From the UHGV virus genome UHGV-0038737: 31,147 nt of DNA. One strand, 5' to 3'. How positions within the stretch are numbered: position 1 is the first letter of the stretch; each line of letters begins with the position of its first letter. The stretch is from a virus. The notes under the pieces were generated by a model. It saw only the letters and a list, made by a program, of their open reading frames with translations, searched no databases and was not told the DNA's origin. Of the stretch, positions 23,516 to 30,687 are shown piece by piece. Both the position numbers and the translations under genes were made by a program.

Positions 23516-23799
23516 TACGCCAGTACGTATTCAGGTGTTGATGGATTGATGATAAATTTCTGCGCAGCTTCAGGTATGAGGCCATAGATAACATCAATGT
23601 GATAACCGTCCTTTAGGGTCGGCTCCTTTATCACATTTCCGGCCTCGTCATATTCACCGTCACTGTTATACAGAACGCCCCGCACAGAAAACTGAATAGA
23701 CTTAGTCGGTACTGCCCATCCAGCCCCCTCAGACCACCAACCAGTGGCTGCTCTCGCAGTAGCCTCATCAGGGAATCGTAAATATGTCAGCCTGCTCAT
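23515..23799 (-). CDS. Hypothetical protein (94 aa)
   Basis: ORF MSRLTYLRFPDEATARAATGWWSEGAGW... with start overlapping the stop of the upstream 356-aa gene. No family recognised. Confidence 0.5.
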   Translation of the reverse strand: MSRLTYLRFPDEATARAATGWWSEGAGWAVPTKSIQFSVRGVLYNSDGEYDEAGNVIKEPTLKDGYHIDVIYGLIPEAAQKFIINPSTPEYVLA

Positions 23800-24869
23800 T
23801 ATCTTATGTACTCGATTCGTTGGATGTAGCGCTTACCCCAGTCAGTCGTTGATGCTGGTATTTCAACCTCTTCTGCACCGCCAAAATCGATTTGCTTGGT
23901 CGTTGCGTCGCTATAGTGCAAACGCACAGAGGTTGCAATTCTGCTGGGGTTCTTGATGTTCGCAAAAGCCTTGGATCGTGTTGCAGCAGCGCTGGATGCA
24001 ATGATTGGTGATGTTGAACAGGGATTATCTTCAAGCTGCAGTGTTGCAAACTCCAGAGAATATGATGAATCTCCAACGTAGGTTTCGCCACCGGGTGTGA
24101 TACTGGTTGATGGCCCCATATAGATTATATAGGAAGGTGACTTTACGGATTTTGTCGCAATAACAGTCCCGGAAAACCGTATTACGCCGGGAGAGATAAA
24201 CTCTGCGGTTGTAGTGAGTCCATCAGAAATACCGGTGAATGACACTGACGCATCAGAGATATTTATTACAGATAAAATCTGCGCATCAACAATCAATTGG
24301 TGCGCTAAAATGACAAATGCATACCCTCTCGACTTCTCTGTTTTTTGAATAAAACCGCTAAAGCTGTACTTCTTTCCCGCCGTAACTTTCTGCGGACATG
24401 CAGCGTAGTGTGGCCCTTCCAAATTAGATTCTGTAAGCCTGAATGTCGGGGTATTCAGTATTCTTTCTGCGGAATTACTTATTGCCGCACGCACTGCCCC
24501 TACCCCCCCCGTATAGTAGGTGTTGGTCGCCTGCACTTCAGGCTCATGCCTTCCAACTGCCACACCATTTCGGTACTCAAGCGGCCATACGTCAGGTGCA
24601 GCGAACTGAATAGTTCCGTCAGCTGAGTAGTATGCATGGTTGCTTGCGCAGCTGAACGAAACCCGATAATCCAGTGCAGAGGAGGTAAGATCGATATCGC
24701 TAAGGTCAACCCACTCGCCAGGCGGCAGCGTCATAACATTAGCACCGGGAATAACTATGCCGGATGGAAAACTATCTGATGATGCGCCAAGCTCAGTCAC
24801 ATCAGGGATAAATAAGCCTTTCATAATTGCACCACAAGCGATGATAAATATTTCAAATAAAACCGGCAT
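23799..24869 (-). CDS. Hypothetical beta-rich protein (356 aa; start could be Met16 at 24824)
   Basis: Long ORF with Ser/Thr/Gly-rich composition and no recognisable catalytic or nucleotide-binding motif. Hydrophobic N-terminus. Contains an in-frame G8 tract. Confidence 0.55.
   Translation of the reverse strand: MPVLFEIFIIACGAIMKGLFIPDVTELGASSDSFPSGIVIPGANVMTLPPGEWVDLSDIDLTSSALDYRVSFSCASNHAYYSADGTIQFAAPDVWPLEYRNGVAVGRHEPEVQATNTYYTGGVGAVRAAISNSAERILNTPTFRLTESNLEGPHYAACPQKVTAGKKYSFSGFIQKTEKSRGYAFVILAHQLIVDAQILSVINISDASVSFTGISDGLTTTAEFISPGVIRFSGTVIATKSVKSPSYIIYMGPSTSITPGGETYVGDSSYSLEFATLQLEDNPCSTSPIIASSAAATRSKAFANIKNPSRIATSVRLHYSDATTKQIDFGGAEEVEIPASTTDWGKRYIQRIEYIR
24503..24510 (-). repeat. G8 homopolymer tract inside the 356-aa coding sequence
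   Basis: Coding strand ACG GGG GGG GTA (T-G-G-V). Eight consecutive G. Confidence 0.9.
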
Positions 24870-24923
24870 AGGCCACGCTATTTCATGGCTCTGGTTTTCT
24901 CTATTAAGGAGCTTCTGTAATGG

Positions 24924-25181
24924 CTACTTCGTTTTTGCTTCCGCTCTTTTACGGCGGCGCTCTTCTTTCTTCTCGGCGTTTGCCATGTCCATGAATGCCT
25001 GCATGATCGAGTTCCTCATCATGTAACTTACAAAGTGATGATTGACGCAGCCGTTGAGACGGAGTTGCTCGCCAAACTGATCAACCGAGGCCAGCACCTG
25101 CATCATGTCCTTCTCACCTTTCATGAACTCTGAGAAGTCGCGCCCCGCTCTGGAGGCGCATTCTATTATTCGGGTGCTCAT
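24924..25181 (-). CDS. Hypothetical small protein with basic C-terminus (85 aa)
   Basis: ORF MSTRIIECASRAGRDFSEF...KKEERRRKRAEAKTK. ATG at 25181 overlaps the KilA-N gene stop (TGATCATGA). Confidence 0.45.
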   Translation of the reverse strand: MSTRIIECASRAGRDFSEFMKGEKDMMQVLASVDQFGEQLRLNGCVNHHFVSYMMRNSIMQAFMDMANAEKKEERRRKRAEAKTK

Positions 25182-25183
25182 GA

Positions 25184-25912
25184 TCAGGCCGCCGCATAGA
25201 GCAATTTCATCTGCCCTTTTACCTGGAATGCCGACATGCAACGCGCTTCGAAATCACGATAATCAGAGCACCCATTGGCAATGCTGGTAACGGCAATGAT
25301 CTGTCGCTCAACCAATGTCAGCGCGTCAGGTTTAAGGTGCTGATGGATTTTGTCTCCCGCAGCCAGCCGTCTTTTAACCTCTGCATATACTTCTGGTGGT
25401 AATACCGGGCCATATACCCACTTGGCACTGATCATCCCAAATAGTGCGGGGCGACGACCTGGTCGATGACGGGGCAGCCCTGACATTTTGAACATCGCAG
25501 AATAAAACGGATCGCTAAACCTCTTTTCCCATGGCTGAGATTTATCCAGAAGGAAAATAGCCTTTATTCTTTCATCGTCGATATGATGAACGGAACCCTG
25601 AATGATTGCGTCAATTTGCTCATCACACCAGATCTCAAAATCTACAGAAAGCCATCGAGCAAATCTGACCGCCAGTTTTGGGTGAAGCCATGTTCCGCCG
25701 CCACGGTCTTTGCGAGCGCGGCTGGTTTTTACATATGTGATATTCCCATATCTACTCTTTAACGCCTCGATGTAACGGACAGTCTCAGGAAGCCTAAGCC
25801 ACTGAGCCGGCTCCTTGTTGAACTTGTCAGCTGCCGCAGTCGCGTCAAACCAGCCATCGTCAGAAAAACGCATGGGATGGCCTTCGAAATCAATCGGGAT
25901 GATATTGGACAT
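25184..25912 (-). CDS. KilA-N domain protein (Bro-N/KilA-N N-terminus, P63C-like C-terminus)
   Basis: MSNIIPIDFEGHPMRFSDDGWFDATAAADKFNKEPAQWLRLPETVRYIEAL is a typical KilA-N N-terminus. The ORF track extends to 25987 and the upstream Met cannot be excluded. Confidence 0.7.
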   Translation of the reverse strand: MSNIIPIDFEGHPMRFSDDGWFDATAAADKFNKEPAQWLRLPETVRYIEALKSRYGNITYVKTSRARKDRGGGTWLHPKLAVRFARWLSVDFEIWCDEQIDAIIQGSVHHIDDERIKAIFLLDKSQPWEKRFSDPFYSAMFKMSGLPRHRPGRRPALFGMISAKWVYGPVLPPEVYAEVKRRLAAGDKIHQHLKPDALTLVERQIIAVTSIANGCSDYRDFEARCMSAFQVKGQMKLLYAAA

Positions 25913-26061
25913 CGTATTTACCTTTTTGGTGATATGAGCCAGTTCTCGCAGACATGGACAGCCCAAGAGCGGCACGATGTAAGCCACCGTCCTGTCTCTG
26001 TCTCATATCCCGAAAAGCTCTTGGTTGATATGCGCACGAGAATGCGCGGTTTACTGCGGAT

Positions 26062-26088
26062 ATAAAAAAGCCCCGCATAGGCGAGGCT
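26062..26088 (-). terminator. Rho-independent terminator after the protease gene
   Basis: Minus-strand RNA GCCUCGC-CUAU-GCGGGGC (one G-U pair) followed by UUUUUUAUAU, 19 nt after the stop at 26107. Confidence 0.55.
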
Positions 26089-26106
26089 GGAATCAGACAG
26101 GGGGGA

Positions 26107-27009
26107 TTAAGACTGGATATTCCAAATCATTGCGTTACCGTTATGATTTTCAATGATTTTTGCCAGTGGTGCTCCACCAAAAGAATGCATGTAGCTGTGA
26201 TGTATAGTCAAAACCAAATCTTGAAGTACTTGATCACTTTCAAGTTCGGTAACATTCAACCCAATTTTCTGCGCCTTATCAAAATGAATATGACGCGAGT
26301 GGGTATAGGTTGTGTGATGGTTGTTTAACTCTGAACAAACATGTGTTGCTTTTGATTCTGCCTCAGGATCATTATCAAACATGCCTGTCATAAGCCAATG
26401 CTTAACAATCTCATTTGCCCATTTGATTGCTTTCTCACACTCGCCGATGATCGTCGGGTTTAGCTTTTGAAGAATGAACTGCCACATCTGAACAGCTGCG
26501 GGATTTTGAAAAATTTCCGTCTGCGCACGATTCCATTCTTCAATGATGGCATGGGTGGAGAAACCGTTGAACTGAGGATCAATTGGGCCAATGTTGGACT
26601 GTTTACCCATGATGATTTCATTGGCACAACATGCAAGCATAGTTCCGCAGGACATTGAAATCATAGGAACAATTGCTCTGATGTTAGTTCCAAACTTCGA
26701 CCTTAAGTAATGCCCGATTGATTCCAAAGCGGCAATATCACCACCTGGAGTATGAAGTATCAAATCCAACCCTTTTGATACATCTAAACCATTGATGGCT
26801 GTCATCAACCCGTTCTTATCATCATCAGTCATCTGAGTAAGATGGCGTACTTCTGCACCACCATGCTGTAACCACCCTGAGTAATATGTGATTACATTTC
26901 TTCCAGTATGATTCGAAAGTTGAGATAAGTATTTACGGCGAACCTCATCCATAGGACTTTTATGGGCGAGAGCCGTTATCTCGCCCAGTACGTCGCTCCA
27001 ATTAGGCAT
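26107..27009 (-). CDS. ClpP-fold serine protease, SDH / S49-like family
   Basis: Motifs GLDLILHTPGGDIAALESIGHYLRSKFG, IRAIVPMISMSCGTMLACCANEIIMG and GPIDPQ are characteristic of the ClpP/crotonase-fold SDH serine proteinase family as recalled. AT-rich gene, translationally coupled to the upstream small ORF. Confidence 0.8.
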   Translation of the reverse strand: MPNWSDVLGEITALAHKSPMDEVRRKYLSQLSNHTGRNVITYYSGWLQHGGAEVRHLTQMTDDDKNGLMTAINGLDVSKGLDLILHTPGGDIAALESIGHYLRSKFGTNIRAIVPMISMSCGTMLACCANEIIMGKQSNIGPIDPQFNGFSTHAIIEEWNRAQTEIFQNPAAVQMWQFILQKLNPTIIGECEKAIKWANEIVKHWLMTGMFDNDPEAESKATHVCSELNNHHTTYTHSRHIHFDKAQKIGLNVTELESDQVLQDLVLTIHHSYMHSFGGAPLAKIIENHNGNAMIWNIQS

Positions 27010-27012
27010 AAA

Positions 27013-27213
27013 TCAGTACGTGTAAAGTTGATGACTTGTAGTTTGGTTTTGCTTCGATTGTGTAGCGGTACCTTGTGAGTACCAAACACCTGTGTTTCCA
27101 CTCGTACTAGTTTGCTGTGCCATTACACGAGAAGCGAAGTTGTTAACAGTTTCACCAGTCAACATTTCTGCCGGTTTGATATTGTAAACATCGTAGAACT
27201 CAGCTGGGGTCAT
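27013..27213 (-). CDS. Small protein (66 aa) with Gln/Ser/Thr-rich tail, first gene of the protease operon
   Basis: ORF MTPAEFYDVYNIKPAEMLTGETVNNFASRVMAQQTSTSGNTGVWYSQGTATQSKQNQTTSHQLYTY. Strong RBS AAAGGAG 8 nt upstream. Stop 3 nt before the protease ATG. Confidence 0.6.
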   Translation of the reverse strand: MTPAEFYDVYNIKPAEMLTGETVNNFASRVMAQQTSTSGNTGVWYSQGTATQSKQNQTTSHQLYTY

Positions 27214-27235
27214 AATGATAGCTCCTTTTATAGCG

Positions 27236-27296
27236 CTACATATAGTGCCTGTGCCAAGGGGGACATACTATATGTGCCATTGTTGTCATATTTAAA
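27236..27296 (-). promoter_or_regulatory. Putative promoter/operator region of the small-protein/protease operon
   Basis: Lies between an upstream terminator and the RBS. Contains repeated TGGCAC and ATATAGT-like motifs and candidate -35 (ATGACA) and -10 (TATAGT) elements. Exact promoter not resolved. Confidence 0.3.
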
Positions 27297-27302
27297 TGTG
27301 CA

Positions 27303-27324
27303 AAAAGCCTCAAAAGAGGCTTGA
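27303..27324 (-). terminator. Rho-independent terminator insulating the lysis cassette from the downstream moron
   Basis: Minus-strand RNA AAGCCUC-UUUU-GAGGCUU followed by UUUGCACAUUU. Confidence 0.5.
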
Positions 27325-27583
27325 AAAAGATGCAAAAATACTATCTATGACGTGACTATAGCTACTTACCCACAGTTTATACAAGCCAAAAATGCTAAAT
27401 TCAGATAATCCTATTCGCTGAAAAACTACACAAAAGCTACGTTCATCTTGTCATTAGATAACGTCAGTAACTTTCACTGGATCTAAGCCATTGGTGAAAA
27501 AGCTAATTGCATGATGAAGCACTGTAATGTAGCAGTTGAGGTTGTTAAATGAGAATCACCCTAACAATGTCAACGGACATTAT

Positions 27584-28099
27584 TCATTTTCGTAACTTCT
27601 CAATCTCTCGTATACCCGCCAGGTTATTGTTGCCCTTCTCAATAACAGCCAGCAAAGGTTCAATCCAGAGGACGGCCTGGCAATACGTCATTGAGCTGGC
27701 GGCAGCGGTACTATCATCGGTTGCGTTAGTGTTCCCGGTATCGGGGTGCATTGCGCTGGCACGTAAACGGTACGCGTATTTGAGCAGCCCACCAGCGACA
27801 TCAGCAGGAACAGGCAGATCACAGGTCTTTTCACGTCGGAGAATCTCCCGGTATTCGATGACAGTTTCTTCGGTGCTGGTGTCGATCAGGGAGTTTAGCC
27901 TGTTGGCATGTTCTGCAACCTGATTGAATCGATTGAAGTTGAATGCCTGGGTGGCGATCACCTGCCCCTGCATAGAGTTGTCACTTCGCAGAACGTCGTT
28001 ATCGCTCTGAAGGCGACTGGCGTTGGAGCAACTCTTAGCGAGAGCGACCGAAAGGACAGCAATAACAACAACGCCTATAAGACCCGGATTAATTTTCAT
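27584..28099 (-). CDS. Rz: Rz-like inner-membrane spanin (i-spanin)
   Basis: MKINPGLIGVVVIAVLSVALA N-terminal transmembrane segment then coiled-coil-like region. Starts 1 nt after the endolysin stop. Confidence 0.75.
   Translation of the reverse strand: MKINPGLIGVVVIAVLSVALAKSCSNASRLQSDNDVLRSDNSMQGQVIATQAFNFNRFNQVAEHANRLNSLIDTSTEETVIEYREILRREKTCDLPVPADVAGGLLKYAYRLRASAMHPDTGNTNATDDSTAAASSMTYCQAVLWIEPLLAVIEKGNNNLAGIREIEKLRK
27688..27834 (-). CDS. Rz1: Rz1-like outer-membrane lipoprotein spanin (o-spanin), embedded in Rz, GTG start
   Basis: In the +1 frame inside Rz: (M)KRPVICLFLLMSLVGCSNTRTVYVPAQCTPIPGTLTQPMIVPLPPAQ*, with lipobox LVG-C, Pro-rich mature part and GGGAG upstream. Found by hand translation; not in the ORF track. 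Confidence 0.6.
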   Translation of the reverse strand: MKRPVICLFLLMSLVGCSNTRTVYVPAQCTPIPGTLTQPMIVPLPPAQ

Positions 28100-28894: not shown

Positions 28895-29329
28895 AGCCTC
28901 ACCTCCGATTCTTCGGATGGCGCTGTGTGTGTATGAAAAGGGTCAGGCTTCACGGGCTGGATTTATCAACAAAGCACGTAGCGGATGATCCCCGAGAGGC
29001 CTGAAATAGAAAAGATAGGGCGTACCGGTCAAGATGGCGTGTCGCGTTGAGCTTTCGCTGTTATGATCCTAGTCTGGATTAGTTGCGGCGCCGGCGCTTA
29101 TTATTGGTTTGCCTCATAGGTCTGCATTTCACAGCAATTGAAAGAGTATTCCTCACAGGCCTTGTGCTGCACATCCAAACGCTCTGTCCATTGCGAAAAT
29201 ATCTTGCGATAAGAAGTAATTAAATTTTGACTTTTCATTAGATAAATGAATTTCTGATTGAGGATACTTTCACTAAATGAGATTTTAATGACGAATCTGA
29301 AAGATCAAATTACCTAAAGGATAATCAAA

Positions 29330-29827
29330 GTGAACAATTTTATTCAAGCTTTAGATGTTTCGATTAAAACCCAAAATTGGTACTCAGTATTATTTATATC
29401 GCTTACGCTGCCAGACATTTTCGGGAAGATTGATGAACCAAACAAAGGATCGCAGGCAAGAACTGTTAATTGGTACAACAAGTACATGAAAGATATGTAT
29501 ACACATCATATCGGCCCCGATCGCCTAGAGCATACATTCCTAAGCGGCAACGACTTTTATGCACTTCGCTGCGCATATCTTCACGAAGGAAGTGACGATA
29601 TTAGAAATCAGAGTGCTCAAGATGTTTTAGAAAAATTTGAATTCGTCCAGCCAATAAGTAATCAAAGCCTACACTGCAACCAATTTAATCAAATGCTTCT
29701 ACTGCAGGTTGATCGATTTGGGAAAGATGTGATGTCAGCTGTTGGCTCATGGCTAAAAGATATTGAGGGTGATGTAGAAAAAACAAACAAACTCAATGAG
29801 TTATTAAAAATAAAAATAATACCATGA
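29330..29827 (+). CDS. Hypothetical 165-aa protein, antisense AT-rich moron between Q and the holin; possible HEPN-like fold
   Basis: GTG start with AAAGGA RBS. Very AT-rich relative to flanking phage DNA. Contains an R-x4-H motif (R80-CAYL-H85). Confidence 0.55.
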   Translation: MNNFIQALDVSIKTQNWYSVLFISLTLPDIFGKIDEPNKGSQARTVNWYNKYMKDMYTHHIGPDRLEHTFLSGNDFYALRCAYLHEGSDDIRNQSAQDVLEKFEFVQPISNQSLHCNQFNQMLLLQVDRFGKDVMSAVGSWLKDIEGDVEKTNKLNELLKIKIIP

Positions 29828-29892
29828 GTAAATATTATTTAGTATTGATCTCGAATTCGATGAAACTAACTTACTGAGCGCACCCTTACCTC

Positions 29893-29930
29893 TAAAAACT
29901 AAAAAGCCCAAGGCGCTAACCTCGGGCTTA
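29893..29930 (-). terminator. Late terminator (tR'-like) downstream of Q
   Basis: Minus-strand RNA AAGCCCGAGG-UUAGCG-CCUUGGGCUU followed by UUUUUAGUUUUUAG, about 70 nt after the Q stop. Confidence 0.6.
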
Positions 29931-29997
29931 AAAACTCATTTACTGCCTGTGCATACAACAATGGCACAATATCAGATTTACACGAAATGTAAGCTAT

Positions 29998-30687
29998 TTA
30001 ATTGACTTTTGCAATACCCTGCTGGGAATAAGTCGCCTTTTGTTGTGATCGTGTTCTCACAGTGCAAAGCAGAGATTCGCTATCGAGCCCCTTAAAGATG
30101 CTGCACATAACTCGCCAGTAGTCCGCGTAATTGTGGCTCCAGTTGTCCGGTTTGACACCACACATAGCAGCTAAGTCCTGTTGCTGATAAACATCACGAC
30201 CAGCCAGTTCCGCCTTCACATCCTGCGCAGCCAGCCAGATTAATGCCTTCAGGCGCTCCAGGGTTTTCCCAGCTATTTTGCGCGCCCCCATCTGGGACTT
30301 GAATTCATCCCACGCCCACTGAGTAATCAACACCTGATTATCCCAGCGCACATTCTCGCTGTAGTTCCATAACAGCCACGCCTTTTGGTGTTCTTCGAGT
30401 GACATCAGTGCGCGGCGCCACGATGAGGTGGAGTATTCAACCGGCTGCACCAGCGGAATATGCGATCCCTTAGCATGCGACTGTTTACCGGGGATTGGCG
30501 GGTTATCCAGAGTTATCATCTCGCCAGTAACCTCATCCTTCACCTTCATCTTCTTCCGCTTAAAGGTACCGGTATCGAACTGCGCGTTCTCAAGCCAGGC
30601 CATTAACTGCCCTTTCGTCGCACCACTCAGATCGGCGGTGGCCACTATCAGCTGCTGGCGCACGTATTCGAGAAATTGAGTGTTCAT
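29998..30687 (-). CDS. Q: Late-gene antiterminator Q-like protein
   Basis: 229-aa ORF in the canonical position between rusA/ylcG and the late terminator/lysis genes. Assignment is mainly positional. Confidence 0.6.
   Translation of the reverse strand: MNTQFLEYVRQQLIVATADLSGATKGQLMAWLENAQFDTGTFKRKKMKVKDEVTGEMITLDNPPIPGKQSHAKGSHIPLVQPVEYSTSSWRRALMSLEEHQKAWLLWNYSENVRWDNQVLITQWAWDEFKSQMGARKIAGKTLERLKALIWLAAQDVKAELAGRDVYQQQDLAAMCGVKPDNWSHNYADYWRVMCSIFKGLDSESLLCTVRTRSQQKATYSQQGIAKVN

Follow-up and report, generated by a model that had tools for sequence, protein, structure and literature searches.

The subject of this analysis is a gene-free stretch of 258 bases (27326-27583) in the viral genome UHGV-0038737, a lambdoid prophage with its late genes on the minus strand, whose whole length of 31,147 nt is referred to here as the window. 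The stretch fills the gap from the stop codon of the spanin gene Rz (27586-27584) to a hairpin at 27322-27305, beyond which lie the genes for a 66-aa protein and a ClpP-like protease. On balance, it is probably the upstream non-coding end of a moron, a horizontally acquired cargo module, inserted at the extreme 3' end of Rz. The proximal part would carry the promoter and an attenuator-type leader of this module, with junk spacer upstream of it. As parts of the same reading, which is favoured as a whole, the proximal third (27412-27326) would carry a promoter, P1, together with ~23 nt from the start of a leader 135 nt long, and the hairpin, H1, would be the first of two conserved leader hairpins and not the end of the lysis operon.

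Homologues of Rz with 75-90% identity, found in ~300 other genomes, lose their similarity to the window at 27591-27600, in the last Rz codons, and in relatives such as L004 and L005 (related loci are cited by such numbers) unrelated cargo genes follow Rz. Diverged copies of the module (81-94% nucleotide identity) align unbroken from 26062/26107 to 27396, 27408, 27433, or 27474, depending on the copy. Since the Rz homologues lose similarity in the last codons while the module copies align past 27326, the stretch belongs with the downstream unit and not with Rz. At the far end of the module, similarity to relatives stops at 26062-26064. The module thus delimited (~26062-27583, minus strand) has a guanine-plus-cytosine (G+C) content of 0.41, against ~0.5 in its flanks (0.495 in a KilA-N gene on one side and 0.515 in Rz on the other). 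The stretch itself has a G+C of 0.353 and the window 0.518; low G+C is common to the whole block 26062-27583 and is not special to the 258 bp.

The module is always in the sense orientation within late operons, behind either an Rz-like spanin gene or a Q gene. Three families of Rz-like spanins precede it (in the window, L035, and L110), as do four families of Q genes with a PR'-like unit (L041, L042, L043, L047, and L126). In the latter five loci the module stands directly after the Q antiterminator gene and its promoter-plus-terminator unit, which in L042 reads TTGCAA-17-TAGGAT-tttctt-AACGATGGG and presumably corresponds to a lambda-type PR' with its pause element. Therefore, both classical cargo slots of lambdoid phages are used, one stx-like and the other bor-like. 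The module closes with a putative, strong intrinsic terminator at 26062-26088, in which a hairpin of 8 pairs, 6 of them G-C, and a T5 run (AGCCTCGCCTATGCGGGGCT then TTTTTATATC) occupy 26088-26069 on the minus strand. The sequence at 26062-26088 is 92% identical over 25 nt to a terminator at 2056-2080 of L041, directly upstream of the putative module promoter there. Shared terminator sequences may serve as recombination points by which the module is moved.

The moron concept, said to go back to Juhala and Hendrix in 2000, reportedly describes cargo carried as independent units, for example bor behind Rz in lambda or stx behind Q/PR'. Close phages carry other genes at the same junction (L004 and L005), the base composition of the module is unlike that of the flanking phage genes (0.41 versus 0.515 and 0.495), and a terminator-like sequence of its own lies downstream (26088-26069). 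By the tests of the definition that could be run, the module is a moron in the classical sense. A promoter-like site, putatively its own promoter, is present at a fixed position in all 25 relatives compared below. Like the lambdoid morons, the module lies between conserved late genes where relatives have other cargo, it has a promoter-like site, a terminator, and a G+C under that of its flanks, and it occurs in both classical slots. Unlike them, it carries a 66-aa protein and an SDH-type ClpP-like protease, neither with any Bor similarity found, and its predicted leader is structured, with a terminator-like hairpin inside it. It also runs with the late operon, whereas bor is on the opposite strand.

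The coordinates, the AT-richness, and the absence of any open reading frame (ORF) of at least 60 aa given in a preliminary description of the stretch are all borne out. The longest stop-free run in any frame is 41 codons, and the only called ORFs within 27326-27583, both on the minus strand, have 24 aa (27384-27310) and 22 aa (27522-27454). A plus-strand ORF of 124 aa (27549-27923) starts in the last 35 bases of the stretch and then runs antisense through Rz; judged by this antisense position to a confirmed gene, it is treated as spurious. That the stretch may hold a small protein, as had been suggested, is hardly credible. The two short minus-strand ORFs are all that speaks for it, and both lack an ATG, with TTG as the start of the 24-aa frame and GTG as that of the 22-aa frame. 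The former begins in the -35 hexamer of P1 and runs through H1, and in diverged copies it is broken, being cut after 1-13 codons in L100, L101, L054, L106, and L042 and frameshifted in L099. The latter lies mostly in the part that is not conserved.

Conservation was examined in loci encoding homologues of the protease, drawn from viral, genome, and metagenome collections. Their upstream regions comprise 25 distinct ones, with E. coli prophages, Mangrovibacter, Buttiauxella, Pseudomonas, and uncultured phages as sources. Third codon positions served as the neutral yardstick; they are 56-59% identical in L035, L036, and L039 and 89-92% identical in L032. Against the three former copies, 27583-27475 is unalignable, with 29-39% identity in a forced alignment, and 27474-27397 is 46-49% identical. 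Identity is 75-81% in the P1 segment (27396-27349), 54-75% in 27348-27325, and 93-96% in the H1 segment (27324-27298). By this measure, apparent constraint is limited to about the last 70-90 bases of the stretch. The comparison with related prophages that had been proposed as a check in the preliminary description thus finds conservation there, but not in the distal two thirds.

The distal spacer after the Rz stop (27583-27475, G+C 0.385), formally a 3' untranslated tail of the lysis genes, has no similarity outside 42 near-identical E. coli prophages. A hairpin predicted in it at ~27575-27535 is unconserved and unexceptional in fold (z = -1.5). Next to it, the middle flank (27474-27397) aligns with the closest relative only, L032. 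Because its identity there is 86%, no better than the 89-92% of synonymous sites in the same locus, it is without sign of constraint. No homologue of the distal 109-187 bp was found in phages, plasmids, or other E. coli contexts. Searches for DNA similarity to the stretch as a whole, run against phage records with both near and distant settings and against plasmids, gave no match. An identical sequence of 387 bp is shared by 42 of the 5,426 complete genomes of E. coli, but by none of the phage or plasmid records. Overall, 27583-27397 appears to be unconstrained junction DNA. A promoter-like sequence at 27548-27521 (TTAACA-16-TACAGT) was set aside; it lies in this unconserved part, and hits of the consensus scan are at chance level.

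The preliminary description noted that lambda carries bor in this position, which is right as to the slot, and a related prophage has bor annotated directly after its lysis genes. A bor gene or remnant was rejected for the window, since the best tblastn hit of Bor (from L002) in a 301-nt target, 27300-27600, had an E of 0.38 and no phage or plasmid DNA matched. Eight proteins that relatives encode after Rz or before the module likewise gave only chance-level tblastn matches. The suggestion that the stretch is a remnant survives for its distal 109-187 bp, as unconstrained junction DNA, but no protein trace of bor or of the relatives' post-Rz cargo is left. In this respect the result is mostly deflationary: there is no hidden gene, two thirds of the stretch are junction DNA, and the remainder is probably where the following operon is controlled.

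It is quite unlikely that the whole of the 258 bp is functionless filler or a remnant and the hairpin a terminator of the lysis genes, the default of the preliminary description. The distal 109-187 bp, with neither homologues nor constraint, would fit this, as would the fold of the whole region on the minus strand (z = -0.95) and a consensus scan with promoter-like matches at chance level (2 sites versus 2.2 expected). The minus-strand fold and the corresponding plus-strand value (z = -2.2, attributed to mirror images of the same hairpins) are, however, not informative alone. Against filler, 27396-27298 is far better conserved than synonymous sites, and the hairpin moves with the downstream module and not with Rz, and is found after Q genes as well. 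Moreover, in lambda, Q-modified polymerase ignores terminators, and late transcripts made by it would not be expected to stop at such a hairpin. The hairpin that had been named as a terminator does exist, and it is terminator-like on the minus strand only; the implicit view that it ends the lysis operon is not supported, given its association with the downstream module, including behind Q. The hairpin at 27322-27302 should be annotated with that module.

In the favoured reading, the leader RNA of the operon of the 66-aa protein and the protease would extend over 135 nt (27348-27214, minus strand), with its first 23 nt inside the stretch and a fold z of -2.3. The order of elements is the same in all 25 relatives, namely promoter-like site, H1, H2, Shine-Dalgarno sequence, and ATG. 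H1 with its U tract (27322-27302) has a stem AAGCCUC/GAGGCUU (27322-27316 and 27311-27305) with a UUUU loop, followed by UUUGC. Its predicted free energy is -10.8 kcal/mol (z = -4.5), and none of 200 shuffles folds as well. The stem has 7 bp, of which 4 are G-C, and the tail becomes U5 if the two basal A-U pairs open, so that a G+C-rich hairpin followed by a U tract, the sequence hallmark of a candidate intrinsic terminator, is present. A simple terminator scan missed H1 because the maximal stem leaves only 3 T in the tail. In 25/25 relatives there is a hairpin at +8 to +28 relative to the predicted start; 24 of these hairpins have energies of -7.8 to -14.1 kcal/mol, the one in L112 has -2.7, and a U-rich tail was flagged by script in 18/25.

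The pairing of H1 is kept by compensating changes. Five of its seven pairs have changed on both sides, G·U outnumbers A·C 14:1, and the stem is wholly replaced between clades (AAGCCUC/GAGGCUU, ACCUCC/GGAGGU, GAGCUCC/GGGGCUC, and GUAUCCC/GGGAUGC). H2 (27275-27238, minus strand) has the arms ACAUAUAGU and ACUAUAUGU around a variable loop of 20 nt and ends 10 nt before the Shine-Dalgarno sequence. In the window its arms form a 9-nt inverted repeat with 100% complementarity, and all 25 relatives have H2 with arms of 9-11 bp and a loop of ~20 nt. Four of its pairs have changed on both sides, and G·U versus A·C stands at 20:8 on the minus strand; of these 8 A·C cells, 7 come from E. coli copies of the window type, which have C·A at one outer pair. 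For both hairpins together, 91.8% of the cells in the alignment of the 25 sequences are paired, versus 25-53% with slid partners, and 9 of 18 pairs have changed on both sides. There are 49 such cells against 17.5 ± 4.4 in shuffles, a number that none of 500 shuffles reaches. RNAalifold recovers H1 and H2 unaided. A covariance model, R1, made from 17 relatives gave one match in the window (27325-27232, minus strand, 79 bits, E 2e-13) and also finds L110, which had been excluded from model building. Comparison of these sequences points to RNA structure on the minus strand as what is conserved in H1 and H2.

Rfam 15 has no match at gathering score in the whole window, and the best sub-threshold match (E <= 10) in 27150-27650 has 22 bits against cut-offs of 37-70, which is noise. 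A leader peptide was tried and rejected, since the ATG-started mini-ORFs across H2 differ or are missing among relatives on inspection. The first bases of the predicted leader (27349-27338, CAUAGAUAGUAU) repeat the left arm of H2 (27276-27265, CACAUAUAGUAU) in direct orientation with 83% identity, and in principle they might rival it for pairing to the right arm. Pairing of the leader's 5' end with the right arm of H2, as this repeat would suggest, was also rejected; it is not conserved in other clades.

It could be argued that the H2 arms, together with two motifs around P1, are DNA operators for a repressor or for DnaA, acting on P1 or on a second promoter-like site, P2. Just upstream of the -35 hexamer, on the minus strand, lies a near-palindrome recognised by inspection (CTGAATTTAG, 27404-27395), which is possibly a regulator site. 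In its place, L054 and L100 have the perfect palindrome CTGAATTCAG and L104 has CCGAATTCAG, and BLAST similarity extends beyond it, to 27408 in L035 and to 27433 in L039. The spacer of P1 contains a DnaA-box-like 9-mer (TGTGGGTAA, 27366-27374, minus strand) with one mismatch to the DnaA-box consensus TGTGNAWAA. Perfect TGTGGATAA is found at the same offset in L042, L110, L117, and L118, the E. coli copies and L047 have one mismatch, and the motif is missing from Pseudomonas-type copies; from this resemblance, DnaA may control the module. In addition, both H2 arms share an invariant A.AT.T.G and form near-palindromes in many relatives. Recognition of these elements as DNA is nevertheless considered very unlikely to explain them. 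In the window, the variable positions of an H2 arm pair with the opposite arm and not within their own arm, and across clades H1 keeps only its pairing and no sequence. The mismatches, moreover, are mostly G·U on the sense strand, at the ratios given above for H1 and H2, and these are not favoured by DNA recognition. The operator explanation is compatible with P1 as the promoter and competes mainly over the role of H2.

P1 itself is a candidate sigma-70 promoter at 27384-27355 on the minus strand, with -35 TTGTAT (27384-27379), a spacer of 18 nt, and -10 TATAGT (27360-27355). Transcription would start at the A at 27348, which is preceded by C. Its hexamers stand within the 16-19 nt distance of sigma-70 promoters, its -10 has the expected A in second and T in sixth place, and it agrees with the consensus at 8/12 positions. 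A site of this type is present in 25/25 relatives as TTGnnn, 16-19 nt (mostly 17-18), and nATAnT, with scores of 6.5-10/12. The end of the -10 lies 122-141 nt upstream of the ATG in all of them, and C-A-T-A is usual at the expected start. In shuffles, only 10% of the best promoter candidates fall into the 20-nt interval seen in the relatives, and 20/25 is not reached in any of 400 replicates. Of the non-coding sequence, only the segment 27393-27355 retains a BLAST match in Mangrovibacter (85%).

Any transcript that includes H1 must have its start upstream of 27322. Three loci, L041, L042, and L043, have a strong terminator immediately before the P1-type site; therefore, transcripts with H1 and H2 must start there between that terminator and H1, where P1 sits. 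The comparison thus illustrates how a promoter can be placed by sequence comparison, using strand-biased covariation on its downstream side and terminators that precede it in other contexts.

P2 (TTTAAA-18-TATAGT, 27296-27267, minus strand) scores 9/12 in the scan, and its -10 is the left arm of H2. If the operon were transcribed from P2, the segment from P1 to H1 could be a separate small-RNA gene of ~47-50 nt, acting in trans or on the module. A promoter with a hairpin and U tract ~50 nt further on is the anatomy of a small-RNA gene, and in 12/25 relatives there are candidates comparable to P2 at a distance of 49-53 nt from the ATG. L056, L109, and L115 agree in all of the first 18 nt of the leader, although by eye their small proteins look only about half identical. 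However, the A at position 2 of the -10 of P2 is not conserved, and H2 has RNA-type covariation and a G·U bias even though a P2 transcript would start inside it. Conservation of the leader within the E. coli clade is lowest in its 5' segment (54-88%), no Rfam family matches, and 5-7 of the 25 relatives lack a U tract. A separate small-RNA gene is regarded as unlikely. A small RNA had been among the suggestions of the preliminary description, and P1 followed by a hairpin and U tract would indeed give a transcript of ~47-50 nt, so that in this limited sense a short RNA derived from the leader may, at most, be made. A 5' leader is the simpler reading, since promoter, H1, and H2 stand at a fixed distance before the gene pair in 25/25 relatives.

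Several points weigh against a promoter and attenuator-type leader. P1 agrees with the consensus at only 8/12 positions, has a weak -35 (TTGTAT), and falls under the threshold of the consensus scan, from the list of which it is absent; P2, which would start inside H2, would bypass H1. The 25 relatives share phylogeny, so that the shuffle controls overstate significance. The 5-7 relatives without a clear U tract after H1 mean that termination may not be its conserved function. In H2 the arms are conserved beyond the need of pairing, A.AT.T.G being invariant in both, and they may be a protein-binding site or be recognised by some factor. No antiterminator pairing was seen in the leader in minimum free energy or centroid folds or by inspection, a search dedicated to it not having been made. 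Finally, the lack of homologues for the distal part demonstrates a lack of conservation but does not demonstrate a lack of function.

The scheme proposed for the promoter and leader is as follows. In the lysogen, polymerase from P1 would mostly stop at H1, yielding an RNA of ~47-50 nt and low expression of the 66-aa protein and the protease. During lytic growth, terminator-resistant Q-modified polymerase from PR' would read through H1. Since the module is always in the sense orientation in late operons behind a spanin or Q gene, Q-modified read-through would be available every time. For the distal two thirds of the stretch (27583-27397), transcription would be passive, at the tail end of late lysis transcripts only. 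A more far-reaching version holds that the leader of P1, H1, and H2, which is found in prophages from E. coli to Pseudomonas, is an undescribed regulatory RNA gating a prophage pair of protease and small protein, silent in the lysogen and released by Q- or N-modified polymerase or by an RNA-binding factor. This version is considered unlikely; if it were true, the module would represent a late-phase or anti-phage function of a new kind, and the terminated RNA of ~50 nt might itself be active. The control region is ordinary in kind, and it is the leader motif and the gene pair that are undescribed.

The arrangement of P1 and H1 recalls the PR'-tR' (6S RNA) unit of lambda, in which a promoter is followed by a close terminator passed only by Q-modified polymerase. 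In both, a promoter or candidate promoter in a late operon is followed by a hairpin and U tract, ~45-50 nt on in the case of P1, and in relatives 7-27 nt separate the predicted start from the base of H1. By inspection, P1 is unlike the PR' region of the window itself (30012-29984, with a terminator-like sequence at 29929-29904). The same P1 also occurs beside four Q families; therefore, a Q-specific binding element is unlikely. For these two reasons P1 as a Q-dependent promoter was rejected. As in attenuators and other leader-terminator regions, a terminator-like hairpin, H1, lies between promoter and first gene, within the 5' leader, and it and the additional H2 are supported as RNA structures by covariation. 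Unlike them, this leader has no leader peptide seen, no antiterminator pairing found, and no Rfam match. Type III toxin-antitoxin systems (ToxIN) share the order of promoter, short RNA, terminator, and protein genes, but they have tandem RNA repeats, of which none was found in 27150-27650, and the downstream proteins of the module are not endoribonuclease-like.

The first gene of the module (27213-27013, minus strand) encodes the 66-aa protein, belongs to phrog_25714 (E 4e-44), and is preceded by AAGGAG at 27227-27222. The second (27009-26107, minus strand) encodes the SDH-type ClpP-like serine protease of 300 aa (PF01972, E 8e-23; phrog_11747, E 2e-138), which matches NCBIfam NF047768 under the curated cut-off. 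Both proteins belong to PHROG families without assigned function, PADLOC gave no match for either, and a full-text literature search on the protease family returned nothing relevant. A small ORF is found directly upstream of the protease gene in 25/25 distinct relatives, including all of the gammaproteobacterial ones. The small proteins have 64-70 aa, and their C-terminus is kept as (L/M)Y(S/T)Y, which, beside a protease, suggests a relation of substrate or partner. The 66-aa gene is missing from at least one RefSeq annotation, being unannotated in NZ_CP025916 and annotated in NZ_CP060924. The covarying two-hairpin leader, with the predicted start at 27348 and mutable H1 and H2, offers a handle on when and how this cargo is expressed and on its role.

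Among distant homologues of the protease (~46-56% identity, from Elusimicrobia, Roseomonas, Chloroflexota, and metagenomes), several have an ORF of ~60-90 aa directly upstream; small upstream ORFs of unlike sequence are found in L044, L046, L066-L070, L075, and L121-L125. The leader covariance model gave no match in loci of protease homologues with ~50% identity. Since distant homologues have a small ORF without the leader motif, the pairing of small ORF and protease appears to be older than the leader.

Upstream of the module in the direction of transcription, the minus strand of the window carries the genes for the Q antiterminator (30687-29998, PF06323), the holin (28894-28616), the lysozyme (28644-28096), and Rz (28117-27584, 177 aa; phrog_214, Rz-like spanin, E 7e-58). 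At 30012-29984, overlapping the end of the Q gene, lies TTGCAA-17-TACATT on the minus strand, followed at 29929-29904 by a hairpin of 11 bp and a T run; by their sequence, these are likely the late promoter and terminator of the phage. This region (29904-30012) resembles that after Q in a Pseudomonas locus, L043. Between the Q/PR' region and the holin gene there is a second island of low G+C (29100-29900, down to 0.26), inside which an ORF of 165 aa on the opposite strand (29330-29827, plus) belongs to phrog_18591, function unknown; the island is probably another moron. Further cargo lies on the minus strand between the module and the small terminase gene (23799-25987), comprising the gene of a KilA-N/P63C-domain protein (25987-25184) and that of a protein of 356 aa in which a head-spike-fibre domain is recognised (24869-23799). 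Both genes are missing from L001, although it has the same module.

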